A stretch of DNA of 37,790 nucleotides from a virus (taxonomy: Duplodnaviria; Caudoviricetes): positions 1 through 37,790 of the IMG/VR virus record IMGVR_UViG_3300020045_015655, one strand, 5' to 3'. Both the position numbers and the translations under genes were made by a program. Each line of letters opens with the position of its first letter. Position 1 is the stretch's first letter. A model generated the notes under the pieces. It saw nothing but the letters and a program-made list of their open reading frames with translations. It searched no databases and was not told where the DNA came from. Below are positions 4,562-30,474 of this stretch, one piece after another.

Positions 4562-5131
4562 ATGAATATAAGTGATACAAAATTATATAAGACTTTTGTA
4601 AGAATAAAATGTAGGTGTTATAATATAAAAGATAAGCGTTATAAGGATTATGGTGGGCGTGGCATTACTGTTTGTGATGAGTGGAGAAATTCATTTGAAC
4701 AGTTTGCTAAAGATATGGGAGAACCACCAACAAAAAAACATAGTATTGATCGTATAGATAATAATAAAGGCTATTCAAAAGAAAACTGTAGATGGGCAAC
4801 ACCTAAACAACAAGCAAATAATACTAGGTTAACAACTTTCATAACTTATAAAAATGAAACTAAATCATTATCTGAATGGACTAAAATTAGTAAATTACGT
4901 AAAGGAACAATAATTACAAGATTAAGAAGAGGGTGGACTATAGAAAAAGCTTTGTTTACAAAAATAGATAAAGTTAAATATTTTTCTTATAAAGGTGAGA
5001 AAAAAACTATTTCACAATGGTCTAAATTATATAATATATCTCCACAAGCTCTTAGATTTAGAATAAATAATTGGCCAAAATCAAAAGTTTTGACGCAAAA
5101 ATTAGAAGTCTATAAAGTTTCAAAGCTTTGA
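4562..5131 (+). CDS. Free-standing HNH-type homing endonuclease
   Basis: RC...YGGRGITVCDEW...F..DMG...SIDRIDNNKGYSKENCRWAT..Q.NN, plus two C-terminal YKxE.K...EW/QW DNA-binding repeats. Confidence 0.85.
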   Translation: MNISDTKLYKTFVRIKCRCYNIKDKRYKDYGGRGITVCDEWRNSFEQFAKDMGEPPTKKHSIDRIDNNKGYSKENCRWATPKQQANNTRLTTFITYKNETKSLSEWTKISKLRKGTIITRLRRGWTIEKALFTKIDKVKYFSYKGEKKTISQWSKLYNISPQALRFRINNWPKSKVLTQKLEVYKVSKL

Positions 5132-12089: not shown

Positions 12090-12416
12090 TTAAATATCCT
12101 TTATCAAGAAAATAATATCACTGCCTAAAGATTGAATCTTAAAACCAAACTTTAAAAACTTTGCCATATTTTCATCTTTATAATTACACAATAAAGACAC
12201 CGAGCCTAAAAGCTTCTTACATCCTTTAACTTTTGCCATAGATATTATAGTTTCCATAAGCTCTTTACCAAAACCCTTATCTCTAAACTCAGATCTTATA
12301 TAAAAGTCTTCTAAATAAAAAACTTCTTCATTGAATGAATACACAATAAGAAAGTTTGCACTTTCAATGACTTCTTTATTATAAACTTCTTTCATATAAT
12401 CGGCATAAATACTCAA
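12090..12416 (-). CDS. GNAT-family acetyltransferase
   Basis: FYIRSEFRDKGFGKELM acetyl-CoA motif A; F.K.GF motif B. Confidence 0.85.
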   Translation of the reverse strand: MSIYADYMKEVYNKEVIESANFLIVYSFNEEVFYLEDFYIRSEFRDKGFGKELMETIISMAKVKGCKKLLGSVSLLCNYKDENMAKFLKFGFKIQSLGSDIIFLIKDI

Positions 12417-12764: not shown

Positions 12765-14969
12765 CTAAACCTTCCTTTGTAGTCTTGATTCAATCGTAAA
12801 CCCATGAATACGTAAAGGTGAGTTACTCGTGTTCACACTTATCATTTCATAAGCAAGAGACTTTCCACTAATACCGTAATCAATACGTTCTTGGAATGCG
12901 CCCAAGTTTAAAGTTGTCCCTAAAACTATGCTTGTTCCATAATCTTGATAAAAATTAATCTTACTTGATAAAGTCGCACCTAAGTTATCAGCATTTACAT
13001 AAAGTCTTCTAAATTGCTTTTGTACTGAGTCACCCATGTCATGCAAATATCTTGTCTTATAACTTAGTGTAATACCGGCACCATTATCACTTAAAAAACT
13101 TGCACTAAACCAATTCACTCGGCCATTGTAATCACCATAAAACAATCGCTTTGTATTATTATACCCTTGGATCTCTGCAAATAAATTTGCATTATAACCT
13201 GAGTGAGTAGTCCACGCATCAGCAACGTAATCATACACTACAGTTAAATTATTTGTTGTAGAGCCATCGACTGGGATTGCAAATAAAACTTGATTTCGTA
13301 ACTTATCATGAGCTCCACAAGCGCAAAGCAATGCTGAATTATAATTCATACGATCAAAAATAGGCTGAATCTTTGGTGAGACATATACCAAGTTTGCACC
13401 ATTATACTGAAACACGCCCTTGCGATCTAAAAACAGCATAACGTCATCAAATAAAACCGAGCATCTATTATTTAAACACCCATAGATATTTGAGATCTCT
13501 TGAACAAAGAAATTTGAAGGATTATCACCTACAAGAACATGAAAGCTATTTCTTTTAAATATGTAAAGTCTAGTTTGATAAGATTTTAATGAAGTAATGT
13601 AATCAGAATCATTTGTTCTTACTTCAAAATTATTACTAGGCAAATATCCTTCTGGTTCTTTAACATCACTAAATACGACAGTACTTGGTAAAGCACTAAA
13701 ACCTGCACAAAACATTCTGTTATCATACACGGCTAAAAATTGAGGATAAAAATTAGTTTGATAAGGATTACAATACCCTTGAATTGTTTTAGTCTCAAAA
13801 TTATGAGCAATATCGTTTGCAGTGTAGTAAGTTTGAACAATAGGCCCAAGGCTTAAACCCATAGGTTGATACTGATTAATATAAGGATTAGGAAGTGGAC
13901 CGATGTTATTAAACACACTGCCAAAGCCGCCCACTGTAGTGCCAATCGGCACCGCTGTTAAAGTACTTCCACTTGCATTTACTGAATTGATTTTGACAAA
14001 AGGATAATTCCACGTTCCTGCGTCTTCATTCCAAATATTAATTATATTTGAAGTACTATAAGCATTTTGCACACAATATGAATAAACATTTATTGCGCTT
14101 ATCCCATAACCAAATGGAGTATTAAGCATCAAAGTCATAGCAATAGTGCCGGTCTTTGTTGTCGGTAAAAAGCTAGGTCCAGACTGTGGCCCAAATGCAG
14201 AACAGACAGGCATTATATTACTCTCAAAACCACGATCATTTACATAGCTCACATAAAATATTGCTGCACCTGTTCCACCAAAGCCCATAATGCTTGGTGT
14301 GCTTCCGGTATCATAACCATACATAAGACTAGCAGGGATAGGGATCGGTAAACCGACATTAGTTGTTGTTACACCGTCAAACTTAACAAACTTACTGCCA
14401 TCAGCAATAAAACATCGATCAACTAAATACTCTACTGAGGCATAGCTTCCACTTTGTAATTGCGGAGCTACATCGTAAGTATATCCTGCAAGACCGTTTT
14501 GTATTCCCATAATATATTGAAGTGATGAGCCTTGATAAAACACTCCACTATTAAATTCATTAAAACTTATGCCACCACCGACGTTACCCCATCCTAAAGC
14601 TCTAAAATATCCTACAGGATTAAAACCCATTAATGAGTAACCAAAGTGTAAAGTCGTACCTTGATCAGTGAAACTCATGCCTTGAAAATTACCTGTAGTG
14701 GCACCAAACCAAAGACCGCCACTTGAACCACAAATTACCATGCTAGAACCACTTAATCTTTGATACTCACTAAGTGCTGTAATTTTCCCAGCTAATGTTT
14801 GCCCCATGTATTGAGTCGAACCCCAACGCTGAGTAAGTGATCCAGGCGTTTGAAAATCATAATTCTTAATGTCCATAAACTCCATAGGAGTTGTAAGGTG
14901 CGGCGAAAACTTCGAGTTAATACCACCAAAGTTTGAGTAATTCTCAACTTTTAATTTTTGATTACTCAC
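12765..14969 (-). CDS. Tail nozzle / stabilization protein (P22 gp10 or T7 gp12-like)
   Basis: 734 aa; F.GIN start; beta-propeller-type repeats (YDNRMF, VVFSD, LYIFK, YGC); GAGGTG SD. Confidence 0.75.
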   Translation of the reverse strand: MSNQKLKVENYSNFGGINSKFSPHLTTPMEFMDIKNYDFQTPGSLTQRWGSTQYMGQTLAGKITALSEYQRLSGSSMVICGSSGGLWFGATTGNFQGMSFTDQGTTLHFGYSLMGFNPVGYFRALGWGNVGGGISFNEFNSGVFYQGSSLQYIMGIQNGLAGYTYDVAPQLQSGSYASVEYLVDRCFIADGSKFVKFDGVTTTNVGLPIPIPASLMYGYDTGSTPSIMGFGGTGAAIFYVSYVNDRGFESNIMPVCSAFGPQSGPSFLPTTKTGTIAMTLMLNTPFGYGISAINVYSYCVQNAYSTSNIINIWNEDAGTWNYPFVKINSVNASGSTLTAVPIGTTVGGFGSVFNNIGPLPNPYINQYQPMGLSLGPIVQTYYTANDIAHNFETKTIQGYCNPYQTNFYPQFLAVYDNRMFCAGFSALPSTVVFSDVKEPEGYLPSNNFEVRTNDSDYITSLKSYQTRLYIFKRNSFHVLVGDNPSNFFVQEISNIYGCLNNRCSVLFDDVMLFLDRKGVFQYNGANLVYVSPKIQPIFDRMNYNSALLCACGAHDKLRNQVLFAIPVDGSTTNNLTVVYDYVADAWTTHSGYNANLFAEIQGYNNTKRLFYGDYNGRVNWFSASFLSDNGAGITLSYKTRYLHDMGDSVQKQFRRLYVNADNLGATLSSKINFYQDYGTSIVLGTTLNLGAFQERIDYGISGKSLAYEMISVNTSNSPLRIHGFTIESRLQRKV

Positions 14970-14987
14970 TTATCACCTCAAATTTAT

Positions 14988-16150
14988 TATTTATGAATTA
15001 ATGAATCTTGATGATTATTGCACAAGGCAGTTCATGAAATTATTACATCTTAATTGTAGGATTGTTGCAATATAATTATGCATATTATAGTTGTTATTTA
15101 ATGATTAAAACTTTTCAATTTCGTATTAAAGATTCATGCAAAAAAAATAAGCTTAAACACTTAGCATCTAAAGTTAATTTTGTATGGAACTATCTTAACG
15201 AAACGTCACAATTTGCATGGAAAAGAGATAGAAAATGGTTAAGCGAATTTGATTTTAATAAATTACTTTCTAATTCAAGTAAAGAATTAAAAATACATTC
15301 TCAAACATTACAAATTATAAGTCATGAATTTACATCAAGAAGAAATCAATCAAAAAGGTGTAAATTAAATTGGAGAACTAATAAAAAAAATCTTGGTTGG
15401 ATACCTTTTTCAAGACAAGCAATAAAATTTGAAAATGATACTTTTATTTTTCAAAAACAAAAATATAAATTTTGGAAGTCTCGTGAAATTGAAGGTAAAA
15501 TAAAAACAGGTTCTTTCTCGCAAAATTCAAAAGGACAATGGTTTGTTAATTTACATTGTGAAGTAGAAAATATAATACTTAATAAAAAAAATAATTCTAT
15601 TGGAATTGATCTTGGTTTAAAAGATTTTGCAGTTTTATCAAATTCGAATAAATTAGAAATACCAAATATAATTAAATTATATCAAAAAAAATTATCAATT
15701 GCACATAAAACAAAAAAAAAGAAAAGAATTCGATCTTTATATTTAAAAATAACAAACATTAGAAATGATTTTTTACATAAAGAATCTACTAAATTAGTAA
15801 GAAATTATGATTATATTTTTGTAGGTAATGTTAATATTAATTCTTTGTCTAAATCTTTTATGTCTAAATCAGTCTATAATTCTTGTTGGGGTAGATTTAA
15901 AGATATGCTTGAGTATAAAACCATTAGGTTTGGCAATTCTTTGAAAATTGTAAACGAAAAATTCTCTACGGTAACTTGCTCGGTTTGTCTCGAAAGAAAT
16001 GGACCTAGTGGACTAAGTGGCCTTAGAATAAGAGAATGGGTATGCACAAATTGTGGTTCTATTCATAATAGAGATCATAATAGCGCATTAAACATTCTCC
16101 GTATCGGACATGATACGCAATAGTGGAAGCTTTTTCAGAGCGGATGTCAA
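14988..16150 (+). mobile_element. TnpB-only IS200/IS605-family (IS1341-like) element
   Basis: Preceded by TTTAT (14983-14987) and ends GGATGTCAA (16150). No tnpA. Opposite orientation to the late operon. The left end could alternatively follow TTTAT at 14990-14994. Confidence 0.7.
15101..16123 (+). CDS. tnpB: RNA-guided endonuclease TnpB
   Basis: RuvC-I GIDLGLK, IFVGNV, VNEKFST, zinc finger CSVC/CTNC, RuvC-III RDHNSALNI. ATG 15101 is the likely start. Confidence 0.92.
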   Translation: MIKTFQFRIKDSCKKNKLKHLASKVNFVWNYLNETSQFAWKRDRKWLSEFDFNKLLSNSSKELKIHSQTLQIISHEFTSRRNQSKRCKLNWRTNKKNLGWIPFSRQAIKFENDTFIFQKQKYKFWKSREIEGKIKTGSFSQNSKGQWFVNLHCEVENIILNKKNNSIGIDLGLKDFAVLSNSNKLEIPNIIKLYQKKLSIAHKTKKKKRIRSLYLKITNIRNDFLHKESTKLVRNYDYIFVGNVNINSLSKSFMSKSVYNSCWGRFKDMLEYKTIRFGNSLKIVNEKFSTVTCSVCLERNGPSGLSGLRIREWVCTNCGSIHNRDHNSALNILRIGHDTQ

Positions 16151-16167
16151 AGTTGTCAAAGTCCATT
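16095..16167 (+). ncRNA. Putative omega-RNA 3' core plus guide (5' end unknown)
   Basis: Stem CGTATC(16100-05)/GATACG(16112-17); its loop GACAT can pair with ATGTC(16144-48) as a pseudoknot next to the TCAA end. The guide would start at 16151. Confidence 0.6.
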
Positions 16168-16827
16168 TTAATAAAAGTTATATGAGTCAAAGTCCATTAC
16201 ATTTACGACTTGTCTTGGAATATCATTGATGCGATCAACGGCCATTTTCTTAATCATCTCTTCATAACGGTTTTTCTTAAGCACTAAATTATCAGGCGCT
16301 CTATCGTCTTTAATAAAACCGTCAAAAGCCGCAGTCAAACATGCATACTCTGCAAATTGCTCAGGAACATCTAATGAATCACTAGTGCTAGTTACTTCAA
16401 TTGTTTTAGGACTGTAATACAATCTTAAAACATTCGCAGTTTGCGGAGTAGGTGACACAGTCATTCGATCTTTTTTAAAATAATAGTTTGTTGGATTACC
16501 TAAACGTCTAGACACCATATCTTGCTGATTAAGAGTAATTGGGGTAATTGCTTGCACGACTTCTTCTGTAGTTCCATAGTTACTCAACACTACTTCTAAT
16601 CTATGTTCTTGTAGAAAGTCCGTTGGCAATAAGTAATCAGCTTGCCCCACGACCATTGTTGTCTCTACAGGTTTTAAATACCAATTGTTACCCGCTTGTA
16701 ATAACTCGTTTTGCACGTGTCTTTGAGCAAGATTAAGCCAAGTAATAATTGTTGGCGAAGTAAAATAGCCTTGATTAGTATCATCAAGCCAATTTGAAAT
16801 TAAAGTAATTGCCGTTGAAACTAACAT
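16168..16827 (-). CDS. Head-tail adaptor protein
   Basis: WLN.AQ, Y.LPTDF, P..YY, P.P, L.YY, VPE.F pattern; upstream of the nozzle gene. Confidence 0.75.
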   Translation of the reverse strand: MLVSTAITLISNWLDDTNQGYFTSPTIITWLNLAQRHVQNELLQAGNNWYLKPVETTMVVGQADYLLPTDFLQEHRLEVVLSNYGTTEEVVQAITPITLNQQDMVSRRLGNPTNYYFKKDRMTVSPTPQTANVLRLYYSPKTIEVTSTSDSLDVPEQFAEYACLTAAFDGFIKDDRAPDNLVLKKNRYEEMIKKMAVDRINDIPRQVVNVMDFDSYNFY

Positions 16828-16838
16828 AAGCTTCCTTT

Positions 16839-17138
16839 CTATATCGTAGGATAAGGCCCAAGCATTCCATACTGTGGATTAGTCCACGTCGTAGTAATTG
16901 GCGAAATATCTTGAGGGGAAGACCACGTGTTAACCACAGTATTACTGTTATAATAATCTACATCAAACCATAAATCCATTACTTGCCATATTAGCCCGCG
17001 AGTCAACAATCCAAAACCATTAACTGCACTACCTGCATTCTCTAAACCATACGTAACTAATGGCTCACCATACACAAAGGTAGGATCAGGAGTAGCCTGA
17101 ATATCATATACAGGTGGTGTAATTAATGAACTAATCAT
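16839..17138 (-). CDS. Hypothetical late (structural?) protein
   Basis: Pro/Thr-rich; GLLTRGL motif; ATGA-coupled to the glycosyltransferase. Confidence 0.6.
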   Translation of the reverse strand: MISSLITPPVYDIQATPDPTFVYGEPLVTYGLENAGSAVNGFGLLTRGLIWQVMDLWFDVDYYNSNTVVNTWSSPQDISPITTTWTNPQYGMLGPYPTI

Positions 17139-19348
17139 TCTAAGCCCATTTCAGAGATCCACTCTTTTGCAATAGTTTTCCAATTATGCTTTTCTAAATC
17201 AAGATTAACATTTTCCCAAAGTCTATTATTTAAAACTAATCGGCATTGATCGACGTAATCTAGTTTTTCTTCTTCACTTGAACCATTATGATCAAGCATG
17301 ATGGCTTGTCCTTTACTTTCTGCATCGGCTAAAGTATTAGCAAGAGCACCAAGCTTTCTTGTAATCGGGAAAACACCTAGTGCAAGCATCTCAAGACCAG
17401 TTATGCAAAAAGTTTCAATAAAATTACATGGGTGGAGCCAAATAATAGCATCACTCACATCATAATACATTTTTGATTGCTCAGTAAACCCATGATATTT
17501 AATCCAAGGTCTCTCTGCCATCATTGCTTTTAACTTATCAGCAAGAGCACCTAAACCATATTTATAAAGATTGTCTAAACCATAATAAACATGAAGCTCA
17601 ATTTCTGGTCTTACTTTTAATAACTCATCAATAATTAAAATGCATTGTTCAAGACCTCGATCAGGACTACTCATCCAAACAATCTTGTTCTTGTCCTTTG
17701 GCTTTCTTTCAAAATCAAATTTAACTGGATCAATACCATTACGAGATAAGAATATCTTTTCAGGCTTTACATTCTGTTTTGCCATAACATAATTTTTATG
17801 AAACTCAGATAAGCAAATAATCTTATCAAAGTTTTGAATACTCTCAACTGTCGGAGTAGTTAGATCATGACACCACAAATAAGTTTTTGCGTTAGTTAGC
17901 TTTATGTTATGTCTCCAAGCAATATGAATAAGTGGTAAGTTTTCACTCATATACTTATTTAAATGCTTGTTTGAAATATACTCGACACCACTTTCAGCAA
18001 TAAGAGTGTCTTCTCGCATGTTAAACACTTTAACAGGCTTTCCAGTTAATGCGTGTAAATGCCTTGCTATCTGTACTAGCGCAGTCTCACTACCACCAAG
18101 ACCTTTAGTTTTATAAAGCTCTTCATCAAAGGGATATGCAGTCTGCGGAGGGCATGTAATAACAATATCATTAGTCTGCACTTGATTATTATCAAGTTTA
18201 GTTAAGCTTTCAATGTTTGTTATTTCTTCAAGCATCGCTTTTGCTTCATTATCTTGATACTTAGTAAAGCATTCTTTTGCCTCAAGTTTTGCTTGCTCTA
18301 ACCTTCCCATGTTAAAATAGCATTTAGCAAGTTGAAGGCTCGGCACTTTGCCGTAGCAATCTATGAAAGAATAAACAGCACCTTCATAAGCTCCACTCAT
18401 TTCTTTAGGATTAATGCAAACTTTTGCCGCACCATAAAAGCCTATTGCTTTATGTATTTGGCCTTGAAACAAATAAATATCACCACAAGTTACAAAAAAC
18501 TCAGCACGACTCGGTTCAAGCTTAATCCCTTCGATTGCAAAGTTTAAAGCATGAGTTAGCAAAGACATGATTTCTTCTCTTAACTCTGGTTTTAAATTCT
18601 GAGCACTTTGGAAAGCTGAATAAGCAGCATATTGATATGCTAATACTTTATCATGAAACTCGACGTCTTCACATTTAAGAAACTCTTCAAAAGCCCATAT
18701 CGCTTTCTGAGGTTGGCCGTTTTCATAAAGCTCTTTGCCATAATAAAACTTAAGTCTAGTAGGTAAAGCGCCATCTCTAGTTTTAATATCATCAAGGATC
18801 TTTATATTACGAGACTTATCAGCAATCACGTCTTGTTCATCTCTCATATGATTTACAGACCATGAAACTGCATAATCCCTAGACCACTCAGGCTTTATAA
18901 TAATACCTTCATGCAAATCATATTGCCATACTGGATCAAGAGATCGTTTAAAAACTCTTTCTCTTACAAATGATATAATAGGTTTCTTGTCTTTATCTAA
19001 TGCGTAATTGTAAGTATTAAACCAGCAATCAGCAAACTCCATTGCGTATTTCTTCCACTGAATGAAAGCCTCTTTATCACTTAAGCAATCATCTAAGTCT
19101 AACCAACAAATATAATCACAAGTAGCTTTTGAAAATGCAAAATTACGAGCCTTACAAAAAGAATTAACCCATGTGAAGTCATAGACCTCACACCCACGCG
19201 ATAAACCAATTTCTTTTGTCTTATCAGTTGATCCAGTATCAACTAATACAATTTGATCAAAGCATCCAACTACTGAATCAAGTAATCGGTTAATATTCTT
19301 TTCTTCATTTTTCGCAATCAATGCGAGTGTAATTGTAGGGAAGGCCAT
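17135..19348 (-). CDS. Bifunctional glycosyltransferase: GT2, TPR repeats, GT-B (GT4-like)
   Basis: IAKNEE, VDTGSTDKT, F..ARN, WLDLDD, HE (GT2); helical TPR-like repeats; GGSE, SSPDRGL, ETFCIT.LE (GT-B). Confidence 0.88.
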   Translation of the reverse strand: MAFPTITLALIAKNEEKNINRLLDSVVGCFDQIVLVDTGSTDKTKEIGLSRGCEVYDFTWVNSFCKARNFAFSKATCDYICWLDLDDCLSDKEAFIQWKKYAMEFADCWFNTYNYALDKDKKPIISFVRERVFKRSLDPVWQYDLHEGIIIKPEWSRDYAVSWSVNHMRDEQDVIADKSRNIKILDDIKTRDGALPTRLKFYYGKELYENGQPQKAIWAFEEFLKCEDVEFHDKVLAYQYAAYSAFQSAQNLKPELREEIMSLLTHALNFAIEGIKLEPSRAEFFVTCGDIYLFQGQIHKAIGFYGAAKVCINPKEMSGAYEGAVYSFIDCYGKVPSLQLAKCYFNMGRLEQAKLEAKECFTKYQDNEAKAMLEEITNIESLTKLDNNQVQTNDIVITCPPQTAYPFDEELYKTKGLGGSETALVQIARHLHALTGKPVKVFNMREDTLIAESGVEYISNKHLNKYMSENLPLIHIAWRHNIKLTNAKTYLWCHDLTTPTVESIQNFDKIICLSEFHKNYVMAKQNVKPEKIFLSRNGIDPVKFDFERKPKDKNKIVWMSSPDRGLEQCILIIDELLKVRPEIELHVYYGLDNLYKYGLGALADKLKAMMAERPWIKYHGFTEQSKMYYDVSDAIIWLHPCNFIETFCITGLEMLALGVFPITRKLGALANTLADAESKGQAIMLDHNGSSEEEKLDYVDQCRLVLNNRLWENVNLDLEKHNWKTIAKEWISEMGLE

Positions 19349-27866: not shown

Positions 27867-28649
27867 TTAATTATCATTTTGGTTTTTGTTTCTTAATTTA
27901 TGTAAATAATAAGATTCATAGTCTGGGTGGTTTGGTGCTACTGGTTTATCCCATTGTTTTTCTGGACTAGGTGGGAAAGCGATAAAATCACAGCTAGCAA
28001 GTGAATCTATTAAATCATCGTGAGCACCACGAGGAAACATCATAAGCTCAAGCTCTAGATCACTAAGACCTTTATTTAGAAAAACTCTATTCCATTCAAA
28101 ACGAGGCACCATTGAGAGAATTCTCATCTCTTTTGTTTTATCTGTAGGTGGTTTAATTCCTTTGATAGGTAAGAAAATATTTCTTCGTTTCATTTCATCA
28201 GCTAGAAAATAACTAATAGCTTTTTGAAATGCCACTTCTTCAATACCAATTGCCATGCAATTAAAATTCTTTTGTAATTCAAATATTAGACTAATTAATT
28301 GCGTTGGAGTGATCTTGTATCTTTTAGCGAATCTTACAAACCACCTATTTTCGCTATCTACAGCAATGACTGTGACACCTGTAAAATCAGCGCTATCAGC
28401 TTGTGAAATTGCAGGATCTATATAGCAAAAGTTATGATGAATCTTTGGTATTGTTTCATAGTAGTGAAACCATTCTTTCTTAAATGATTGCATATCAAGA
28501 GGGATGATTTCATTTAAATACTGATTAGAAAATATGTAAGAACCTTGTTCACGTTTTTGTCGTTCTAAAAAAGCATGAGTAAGCTTCTCAGGGAAGAAAA
28601 GGGAACCGTCCTCGTTATATGCTTTTTTATAAACGACTTGCCATTGCAT
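27867..28649 (-). CDS. terL: Terminase large subunit, C-terminal nuclease half
   Basis: G..FFPE...QYLN linker; YIDPA..ADFT, IGIEE..FQ, K..RI, HDDLIDSL (RNase H-like). Confidence 0.88.
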   Translation of the reverse strand: MQWQVVYKKAYNEDGSLFFPEKLTHAFLERQKREQGSYIFSNQYLNEIIPLDMQSFKKEWFHYYETIPKIHHNFCYIDPAISQADSADFTGVTVIAVDSENRWFVRFAKRYKITPTQLISLIFELQKNFNCMAIGIEEVAFQKAISYFLADEMKRRNIFLPIKGIKPPTDKTKEMRILSMVPRFEWNRVFLNKGLSDLELELMMFPRGAHDDLIDSLASCDFIAFPPSPEKQWDKPVAPNHPDYESYYLHKLRNKNQNDN

Positions 28650-29440
28650 TAGGTTGTCACTTTTTCTTTTGATCCAATAGAAACCATCATTGATGAATCA
28701 ACAAAATACCAATTTAGTTTTGGCCAATGTTTACGACAGTAATTTGTAAGCTCAGTTGGTGTCCAAGTTCTTATATGGCCTAGTGTTCTTTTGTCCCAGT
28801 TAGGAAGGCCACCGCCACAAGTATACTTTGGTGTGCTTATCAGAACAAAGTCAGGATCAATTTGAGTTTTATAGAAGTAATGAACTATTTCATCCTCGTT
28901 CCAAAGATGTTCTATTACTTCAAAACATATAAATATGTCTTTAGTTGGTTTATCTGACTCTGTTTTGGTTTTAACAGGACACTTGATATGTGTGTTTACT
29001 GAAATTGGAGTGTAGATAAAATCTAGACCTTCATCTTGTAAACCTAAGGGGAGCCAATAGTTATAAGGCCCAAGCTCTATTATGTTTGCGGTAAAGCCTT
29101 GATTGTTAAGATCACGGACTAAATCAATTGTGACTTGGCCTCTAGGATAAAAGTGTGACTCTTTCCACTGCTTAGAGACAATTTGTTTATGATGAATTTC
29201 TGATTGTTCTATAGATTCAGATTTATCGTTTACATAATCTTGAACAGTCATGCATTGTTCATAAATAAGTCCGCGAATAGTATCAGCCCGCTTGGGATAA
29301 TTATCTCGATAATATCCTGGTAAGTTATCAAGCATGATGAGTGCAAACTTTATCTCATCAGCACAGATCATGCTTTCTACAGCATTTAGATAAGTATCTA
29401 AGTCAAAGTATTTAGGCTTACCAATTATTGAATCATTCAT
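28649..29440 (-). CDS. Class I SAM methyltransferase-like protein
   Basis: IIELGP (degenerate motif I), DIFICFEVIEHL, LISTP, HIRTWT..EL. Confidence 0.65.
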   Translation of the reverse strand: MNDSIIGKPKYFDLDTYLNAVESMICADEIKFALIMLDNLPGYYRDNYPKRADTIRGLIYEQCMTVQDYVNDKSESIEQSEIHHKQIVSKQWKESHFYPRGQVTIDLVRDLNNQGFTANIIELGPYNYWLPLGLQDEGLDFIYTPISVNTHIKCPVKTKTESDKPTKDIFICFEVIEHLWNEDEIVHYFYKTQIDPDFVLISTPKYTCGGGLPNWDKRTLGHIRTWTPTELTNYCRKHWPKLNWYFVDSSMMVSIGSKEKVTT

Positions 29441-29775
29441 TATGCTAATGTAGCACCTGTCCCATAAAACAATTGCGCAGCAATTACGGCAGTCGCGCTT
29501 GCAGTAGCTATATAAAAATTAGCAGGTCCTTCCCAAGCCCAAGGCGCAGAAGTAGGGATCGGCCATCCTGATAATACAGCGGTAGCACCTGATATATTTG
29601 CTCCACTTACTTGATTAGGTAGAATAAAAGTTGTTGCTCCTGATATAGCTTGAATTATACCACCCATACAATTTGATCCTGAATTAAAACGAGTAGGGAA
29701 TACAGATGCTCCCAAAGCATTTATAGTAAATTGTGTTGCCCCAATAACGTGAGTTTGATTTTGTGTTAAAGACAT
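29440..29775 (-). CDS. Ala/Gly/Thr-rich, structural-like protein
   Basis: Almost uncharged; repeated GAT motifs like the virion proteins. Confidence 0.6.
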   Translation of the reverse strand: MSLTQNQTHVIGATQFTINALGASVFPTRFNSGSNCMGGIIQAISGATTFILPNQVSGANISGATAVLSGWPIPTSAPWAWEGPANFYIATASATAVIAAQLFYGTGATLA

Positions 29776-30474
29776 TTAGGTCTCCTCTATTGTGTAAAGT
29801 TTTGTTTCTGGGAAGCCAGACACTTTTAATTGTTCTCTTAATATGTAACCAATGAGATCGTTTTCAGAATACCGAGTGCCTATGATTACGTATGTGCCCT
29901 CGGGTTCTAGTATGGAAAGATTGTATTTATAATGATTGATCACTTTTTGAGACTTCTCAGGTGTGTTTGAATTTGAAGGCGAATTGTAATCATCACCAAT
30001 TATATAGTCGAAATGCTGGCCTACCTTAGTTGTCCCTACTCCGCCAACTGTTATGCTTGCTTCTTTGTAAGCTTTAGTTCTTTGCCTAATGATTATTTCA
30101 GTTTCATTCCAAGTTTTAGTTTTAAATTCCCCAAAAATTGGATTAAGCAATGGTGATTCTAAATGAGCTCTTATTTCTCTAAGAAAAGTTGTTGAGTTTG
30201 TAAAAAGCTCTGAATCTATTAGAATTCTTAAATTAGGATTATTTATTAAAAGCCAAATAGGAAAGGCAACGCATCCAAGACTAGACTTAAGACTACCTCT
30301 TGGGACACAGATAAGCTTTCTTGTTACTGAGCTTTCAAGTGCTTTAATTATAGACTTATGAGTAAATGGGCTTACATCTTTATATCCAAGAAAGCATGAT
30401 GCAAAAATAAACAAACTTTGTTTTGCCGCTTTTTTCATTGCCTCAATATCACCTTGCAAAGCTAAACTACTCAT
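29776..30474 (-). CDS. terL: Terminase large subunit, N-terminal ATPase half
   Basis: Walker A PRGSLKS, GQHFDYIIGDD (Walker B), IIGTRY..NDL.G coupling motif, then a stop. Confidence 0.88.
   Translation of the reverse strand: MSSLALQGDIEAMKKAAKQSLFIFASCFLGYKDVSPFTHKSIIKALESSVTRKLICVPRGSLKSSLGCVAFPIWLLINNPNLRILIDSELFTNSTTFLREIRAHLESPLLNPIFGEFKTKTWNETEIIIRQRTKAYKEASITVGGVGTTKVGQHFDYIIGDDYNSPSNSNTPEKSQKVINHYKYNLSILEPEGTYVIIGTRYSENDLIGYILREQLKVSGFPETKLYTIEET

Follow-up and report, generated by a model that had tools for sequence, protein, structure and literature searches.

A transposase-less TnpB locus at a repaired adaptor gene end of a phage and its possible role in RNA-guided homing

RNA-guided homing by IS200/IS605-type TnpB has been described for ISDra2, the Geobacillus ISGst and a plasmid gene drive (PMC8612924; PMC10097598; bioRxiv 2023.03.14.532601; PMC11870625). 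Every IS605 TnpB cuts the empty allele and spares the filled one (Meers 2023; Mears 2025), and spread that depends on TnpB and is independent of TnpA has been shown in plasmids (PMC11870625; PMC13565253). Here, we describe a TnpB locus in the virus record IMGVR_UViG_3300020045_015655 (Caudoviricetes), of which the complete 37,790 bases were analyzed and are referred to as the window. The locus shares with IS200/IS605 TnpB the fold, the right end TCAA, a predicted right-flank guide, an RNA pseudoknot, a T-rich motif and a target equivalent to the empty insertion site. Unlike those elements, it has neither TnpA nor a left-end hairpin, and the host gene, coding for a virion adaptor, is whole. Moreover, the target is not simply split as in IS200/IS605 but is repeated next door with an intact motif, where a recoded seed codon would spare it. 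This repaired, seed-mismatched gene end is the unusual part, and the literature search, which covered subscription papers poorly, returned no phage TnpB with a recoded spare gene end.

Other described systems resemble the locus in part. TnpB2 proteins such as TvTnpB also carry Gly at the canonical Glu position and an alternative Glu about 45 residues further on (44 in the window), and active TnpBs with this rearranged RuvC-II have been reported (PMC10530073). T4 SegF and SegB, which perform intronless homing, are likewise free-standing nucleases between conserved phage genes that separate self from non-self by substitutions in the neighbouring gene (PMC13565253). Unlike TvTnpB, which uses NTGAC and sits with TnpA (PMC10530073), the window TnpB is phage-borne, and unlike SegF and SegB it would recognize its target via an RNA guide. 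In fungal mitochondria, nuclease inserts near the 3' ends of Allomyces atp6 and Ophiostoma rps3 (described in PMC4019555) bring a second end that keeps the gene working, as is the case here. However, these inserts are protein-guided, of the LAGLIDADG or GIY-YIG type, with the displaced original end lying beyond the insert (PMC4019555), whereas the window nuclease is antisense and the leftover consists of 17 nucleotides (nt) upstream of the insertion point. With a probability of about 0.52, we read the locus as an immobilised IS605-type TnpB cassette, likely an RNA-guided homing element that would cut relatives carrying Asn at adaptor codon 215 (the Asn allele) and insert a copy of itself there, leaving the adaptor gene unbroken.

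The insert and the genes around it are arranged as follows.

12765-14969, minus strand: nozzle-like virion gene, 734 amino acids, with PHROG matches to virion structural proteins only
14982-15100, no strand assigned: left part of the insert, 21.7% guanine plus cytosine (GC)
15101-16123, plus strand: tnpB, 340 amino acids, ATG at 15101, with OrfB_IS605 and Cas12f1-like TNB domains (PF01385, PF07282) above the Pfam cut-off
16168-16827, minus strand: SU10-type adaptor gene, 219 amino acids, whole, C-terminal MDFDSYNFY, with an SU10_adaptor domain match

The terminase, P22/SU10-like portal, capsid, tail fibre and adaptor genes of the window all lie on the minus strand, and the downstream neighbour of the adaptor gene, which retains its ribosome-binding site at 14973-14979, is called nozzle-like from gene order and position. 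Compared with the element-free L001, DNA identity is 88% up to 14981 and 90% from 16170 (96% and 97% for the nozzle-like and adaptor proteins, respectively). As these two blocks abut in L001, approximately 1.19 kb has been inserted at the adaptor stop. The tnpB frame with its Pfam domains lies between both genes and antisense to them, in agreement with the original prediction for this locus. Across 42 family loci, some of them near duplicates, the computed adaptor-nozzle gap was -1 to 12 nt in 37; of the remaining five, four had a start codon at the stop, where the script had chosen a later alignment, and one was truncated. No TnpB match was found in any of the 42 within the 0.4-2.5 kb of downstream sequence examined. 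The adaptor C-terminus appears constrained, since the last residue was Phe, Trp or Tyr in 114 of 120 homologues (209-226 residues long).

The target layout is found at the right flank of the element.

16151-16167, plus strand: predicted 17-nt guide, a relic of the adaptor residues Met-Asp-Phe-Asp-Asn (Asn allele, read on the minus strand)
16177-16181, plus strand: GTTAT, the likely native target-adjacent motif (TAM), directly before the live target copy
16182-16198, plus strand: live target copy, with mismatches at 16183-16185, which form adaptor codon 215 (Ser, TCA)

The near-copied 17-mer of the guide begins exactly at the element boundary. Over these 17 nt, guide and live copy differ only at positions 2, 3 and 4, while the other 14 match and contain an exact 13-nt direct repeat (16155-16167 and 16186-16198, spacing 31). 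A comparable near copy within 200 nt was seen for 48 of 5313 sampled 17-mers of the window, and no further site with two or fewer mismatches to the guide was found in the genome. All three mismatches fall into a single codon, which reads Asn in the relic and Ser in the live gene. The sequence supports the earlier claim that a former adaptor allele survives in the guide as a relic. That claim had counted four differences, of which the three at guide positions 2-4 stand. The fourth, a change from TTTAT to GTTAT in the motif, does not, because the codons Asn-Tyr-Asn of the ancestral allele yield only ATTAT or GTTAT on the plus strand, and the ancestral motif would therefore have been (A/G)TTAT. 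By eye, the left ends of related elements follow a TTAT or TCAT core, whose fifth base varies (TTTAT, CTTAT, TTCAT and GTCAT). The GTTAT at the live site is thus probably the native TAM, ancestral rather than an escape change, which would make the seed codon the sole shield of the live gene.

For ISDra2, guides of about 16 nt and cutting 15-21 base pairs (bp) from the TAM have been reported (PMC8612924), and adjacent double mismatches within positions 1-12 abolish cleavage (PMC10097598). With three adjacent seed mismatches, the live adaptor end would by this rule be protected from its own nuclease, as had been proposed. The relic ends at 17 nt, within the ISDra2 cut zone, which may hint at a cut-repair origin.

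Codon 215 is Asn in all 20 close relatives (nine cluster representatives of 80-98% identity and 11 cluster members, hence not independent), and codon 217 is Asn in all 19 that reach it. Ser at codon 215 was found in all three members of a sister cluster with 76% identity, which makes a borrowed end plausible. According to the genetic code, Ser can be reached by a single base change via the codon AGC. Since such a change would have given AGC, the TCA codon is more simply explained by a borrowed end than by point mutation, and a borrowed end is what we infer. As a separate observation, adaptor codons 195-213 (16189-16245), just upstream of the target and spanning the predicted cut zone, are 19 consecutive codons identical to L001. 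Five of the last seven adaptor codons differ from L001, which is suggestive of a mosaic joint; since similar runs occur in the middle of the gene, no weight is placed on this run as evidence.

The catalytic residues of TnpB were assigned by alignment of the window protein with 39 of its 40 closest homologues.

15608-15610, plus strand: RuvC residue D170
15956-15958, plus strand: alternative E286
16073-16075, plus strand: D325

G242 occupies the canonical RuvC-II Glu position. D170, E286 and D325 are invariant in all 40 aligned proteins, and the four zinc-finger Cys are retained. The structure model (mean predicted local distance difference test, pLDDT, 85.9) gave ISDra2 TnpB (8H1J) as its best Foldseek match, with a template modelling (TM) score of 0.79 and an E value of 1e-21. 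Among the columns that are invariant in the other 39 proteins, the window TnpB changes four and keeps 49, indicating that selection acted along most of its branch. The closest TnpB for which DNA is available is approximately 62% identical.

The predicted omega-RNA scaffold overlaps the end of tnpB and runs up to the guide.

16100-16150, plus strand: 3' core of the predicted omega-RNA scaffold and right end
16100-16117, plus strand: hairpin; its loop (16107-16111) forms a pseudoknot with 16144-16148
16129-16141, plus strand: shortened terminal hairpin of 5 bp
16147-16150, plus strand: terminal TCAA

The element ends in GGATGTCAA at 16150, which equals the IS605-type right end of the family and agrees with the right boundary at 16150/16151 that had been proposed. 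Scaffolds were drawn from 60 loci with at least 36% identity and a recognisable right end, and the pseudoknot pairing was present in all 55 distinct ones, the window's included, with covariation over eight combinations of pentamers. When the partners were shuffled in 2000 trials, pairing was retained in 36.5 scaffolds on average and in 43 at most; kinship was not controlled. In the ISDra2 structure, a pseudoknot likewise adjoins the guide (PMC10097598). Rfam gave no match in the window, the predicted scaffold included. TnpB and RNA scaffold look intact, and by every feature testable from sequence, this is a TnpB2-type OMEGA locus (short for obligate mobile element-guided activity).

The functions for mobility present a different picture. 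A tblastn search with TnpA of the clade gave no match in the window, in accordance with the transposase-less state noted originally, and no tnpA remnant was seen in the left part of the insert. Neither inspection against relatives nor an inverted-repeat search revealed a left-end hairpin in the window's insert; together with the missing tnpA remnant, this means that the true left end has been lost. The close clade members from metagenomes are ordinary IS605 elements, with a divergent tnpA in five of eight loci. The window element lacks tnpA in cis, proper hairpins at its left and right ends and a scarless empty site in a relative, and by these marks it is not a mobile IS605 element. At the same time, its own allele differs at the recognition site and the nuclease is absent from relatives, as is characteristic of intronless homing endonucleases. 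Two metagenome loci (L171 and L175) hold an identical complete IS605 element in different flanks, and 98 nt of the right flank of L171 equal the left flank of L175, which could reflect a hop, a rearrangement or an assembly effect. The pair was not accepted as a transposition hop, as the flanks give no clean empty site, and was used for the motif core only.

From these features, the following course of events can be proposed. An IS605 element would have inserted antisense to the late operon at the TTAT that the codons Asn-Tyr-Asn form, five codons ahead of the adaptor stop. The adaptor would thereby have lost YNFY and instead read through into the element for 30 residues. In the present layout, a spare end coding SYNFY closes the gene and 17 nt of the old allele remain by the right end; the origin of this arrangement would be the acquisition of the spare end, which restored the gene and recreated a TAM-flanked site. 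Because the site was recreated with its TAM, the spare end had to be uncuttable. The present element has neither tnpA nor a hairpin at its left end, its right hairpin has been shortened, and catalytic residues and pseudoknot remain. During co-infection, TnpB is predicted to cut the allele with TTAT plus guide sequence approximately 15-21 nt from the motif, which in an Asn-allele phage would lie near adaptor codons 209-211. Repair on the carrier via homology in the adaptor gene (right arm) and the nozzle-like gene (left arm) would copy spare end, guide and tnpB and leave the recipient adaptor gene whole, and unrepaired rivals would be lost. In this way, the unit of spare end, 17-nt relic, right end and tnpB could spread without a transposase. 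Placed between right end and spare end, the guide would be carried along unaltered whenever the cassette moves; owing to the antisense orientation of tnpB relative to the gene, it is internal, and new recipients would not supply a fresh guide.

However, several results weigh against an active homing element. The exact or near-exact empty site, which the original prediction had expected in a relative, gave no match in viral contigs and none in metagenome contigs. L001 and L002 were the only relatives returned by the nozzle query, and among the close relatives DNA is available for these two only. Both have ATTGT in place of TTAT, and their two and four guide mismatches, respectively, include positions 2 and 5; these alleles may reflect escape or just a different choice of synonymous codons. 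The cassette has been seen once, with a single member in its protein cluster and no match in the genomes of L001, L002 and L005. A guide copy (at most three mismatches, within 200 nt) was found in three of 84 other TnpB loci compared with six of 336 control 17-mers; it is not enriched, and the layout therefore does not characterise this TnpB clade. Furthermore, the window TnpB departs at 18 columns of at least 90% conservation (at most 13 in the other 39 proteins), its end branch measures 0.96 (median 0.23; three other rows are equally long), and the GC content of tnpB is 24.9%, whereas the phage has 33.8% and three relatives from the clade have 37-42%. A promoter scan found no consensus promoter directly upstream of tnpB. 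Finally, immunity is needed for mere phage survival and is no proof of use.

Among the 84 loci, only L065, with an exact tandem copy, stands out. In this viral TnpB locus (2574-2645), an exact 29-nt tandem copy of the right flank at +40 covers a ribosome-binding site and start codon, and the second copy is preceded by a TTAT that is out of register by 3 nt; this is possibly a second way of combining gene repair with escape from self-cutting. Regarding expression signals, the scans of the whole window were uninformative, with seven promoter-like sites against 10.6 expected and no terminators. In four large contigs (L006-L009), viral TnpBs with atypical right ends have their tnpB directly behind consensus-like promoters.

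Of the rival explanations, the one that survives best is a decaying insertion scar, which we consider possible, if doubtful. According to this explanation, an IS605 insertion hit the adaptor end and the gene was saved by a single event of recombination or duplication; no version but the uncuttable one survived, and the element is now stuck, drifting but not spreading. The single occurrence of the cassette, the long TnpB branch with its drift towards A and T, and the fact that the known relatives L001 and L002 are not targets are all in its favour. So are the loss of left end and tnpA and a scaffold that, with its reduced right hairpin, is the shortest of the 55 (78 nt against 85-118 nt), and 89% of TnpB clusters are immobile (PMC10691335). 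However, a drifting scar agrees poorly with a frame of 340 codons that stays open at 25% GC, with catalytic and zinc-finger residues all kept and so few of the otherwise invariant columns changed. The pattern of loss also argues against it: the features for transposition (left end, tnpA, right hairpin) are eroded, while those for targeting (catalytic residues, RNA pseudoknot) are retained.

Very unlikely, in our view, is a TldR-like regulator, in which a non-cutting TnpB would bind the resident site through the TAM and the 13 distal bases and damp adaptor-nozzle transcription. A TAM that is probably intact at the live site, the match of 14 out of 17 guide bases and the changes at conserved positions near the RuvC lid region would all suit binding. 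However, TldR proteins have an inactivated RuvC, whereas all three catalytic residues are kept here, the mismatches are TAM-proximal at positions that TnpB needs (PMC10097598), and TldR targets are promoters (PMC13565253) and not a coding end.

Hardly credible and largely refuted is the original prediction in its exact form, in which the left boundary lies at 14987, the TAM is TTTAT, the rebuilt ancestral end MDFDNYKFEVISE overlaps the nozzle start by 8 nt, and both TAM and seed were recoded: the join does read in frame and TTTAT precedes the left end in the relatives L174, L116 and L117, but the three TTAT motifs of the left part (ending at 14987, 14990 and 14994) each rebuild a different end, none of these ends occurs in relatives, none of the motifs is followed by a left-end hairpin, Lys at codon 217 was found in none of the 19 close relatives reaching that codon, the adaptors of L001 and L002 end in MDFDNYNFY with a gap of 8-9 nt to the nozzle-like gene, and adaptors seldom end in a non-aromatic residue (6 of 120). 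In a stretch of 22% GC, the left TTTAT is most likely incidental, and by these comparisons, the layout is real and the rebuilt ancestor wrong.

Elsewhere in the window, several genes merit description. A free-standing HNH endonuclease gene (4562-5131, plus strand; PHROG 3377) near the lysis genes is a second candidate homing nuclease. The large terminase is encoded in two genes on the minus strand, an ATPase part (29776-30474) and a nuclease part (27867-28649), which match positions 268-465 and 468-713 of PHROG 38; between them lie two tightly packed open reading frames of 111 and 263 amino acids without Pfam or Rfam match. The L001 genome aligns across 27867-30474 as one block, so the split is natural and common to both. 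Within the virion gene block, a two-domain glycosyltransferase of 737 amino acids with TPR repeats (17135-19348, minus strand) and a GNAT acetyltransferase (12090-12416, minus strand) are both conserved in L001, the former in L002 as well.

Returning to the favoured homing cassette, a tentative extension is that it represents intronless homing in an active, RNA-guided form: the phage would have turned an IS605 TnpB into a cut-and-rescue drive on a virion gene that is essential, the guide would be fixed inside the cassette much as one stored spacer is, and relatives would already have been driven to synonymous escape alleles. If the cassette is active, a transposon nuclease could live in an essential phage gene without an intron, by retaining the former allele as its guide, bringing along a spare end that resists cutting and giving up the transposase. 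TnpB homing would then distinguish not just a filled from an empty site but one allele from another, a category for which the current table of homing types lists only protein-guided enzymes (PMC13565253). A fixed internal guide of this kind would also be a plausible step from flank-derived guides towards stored spacers.

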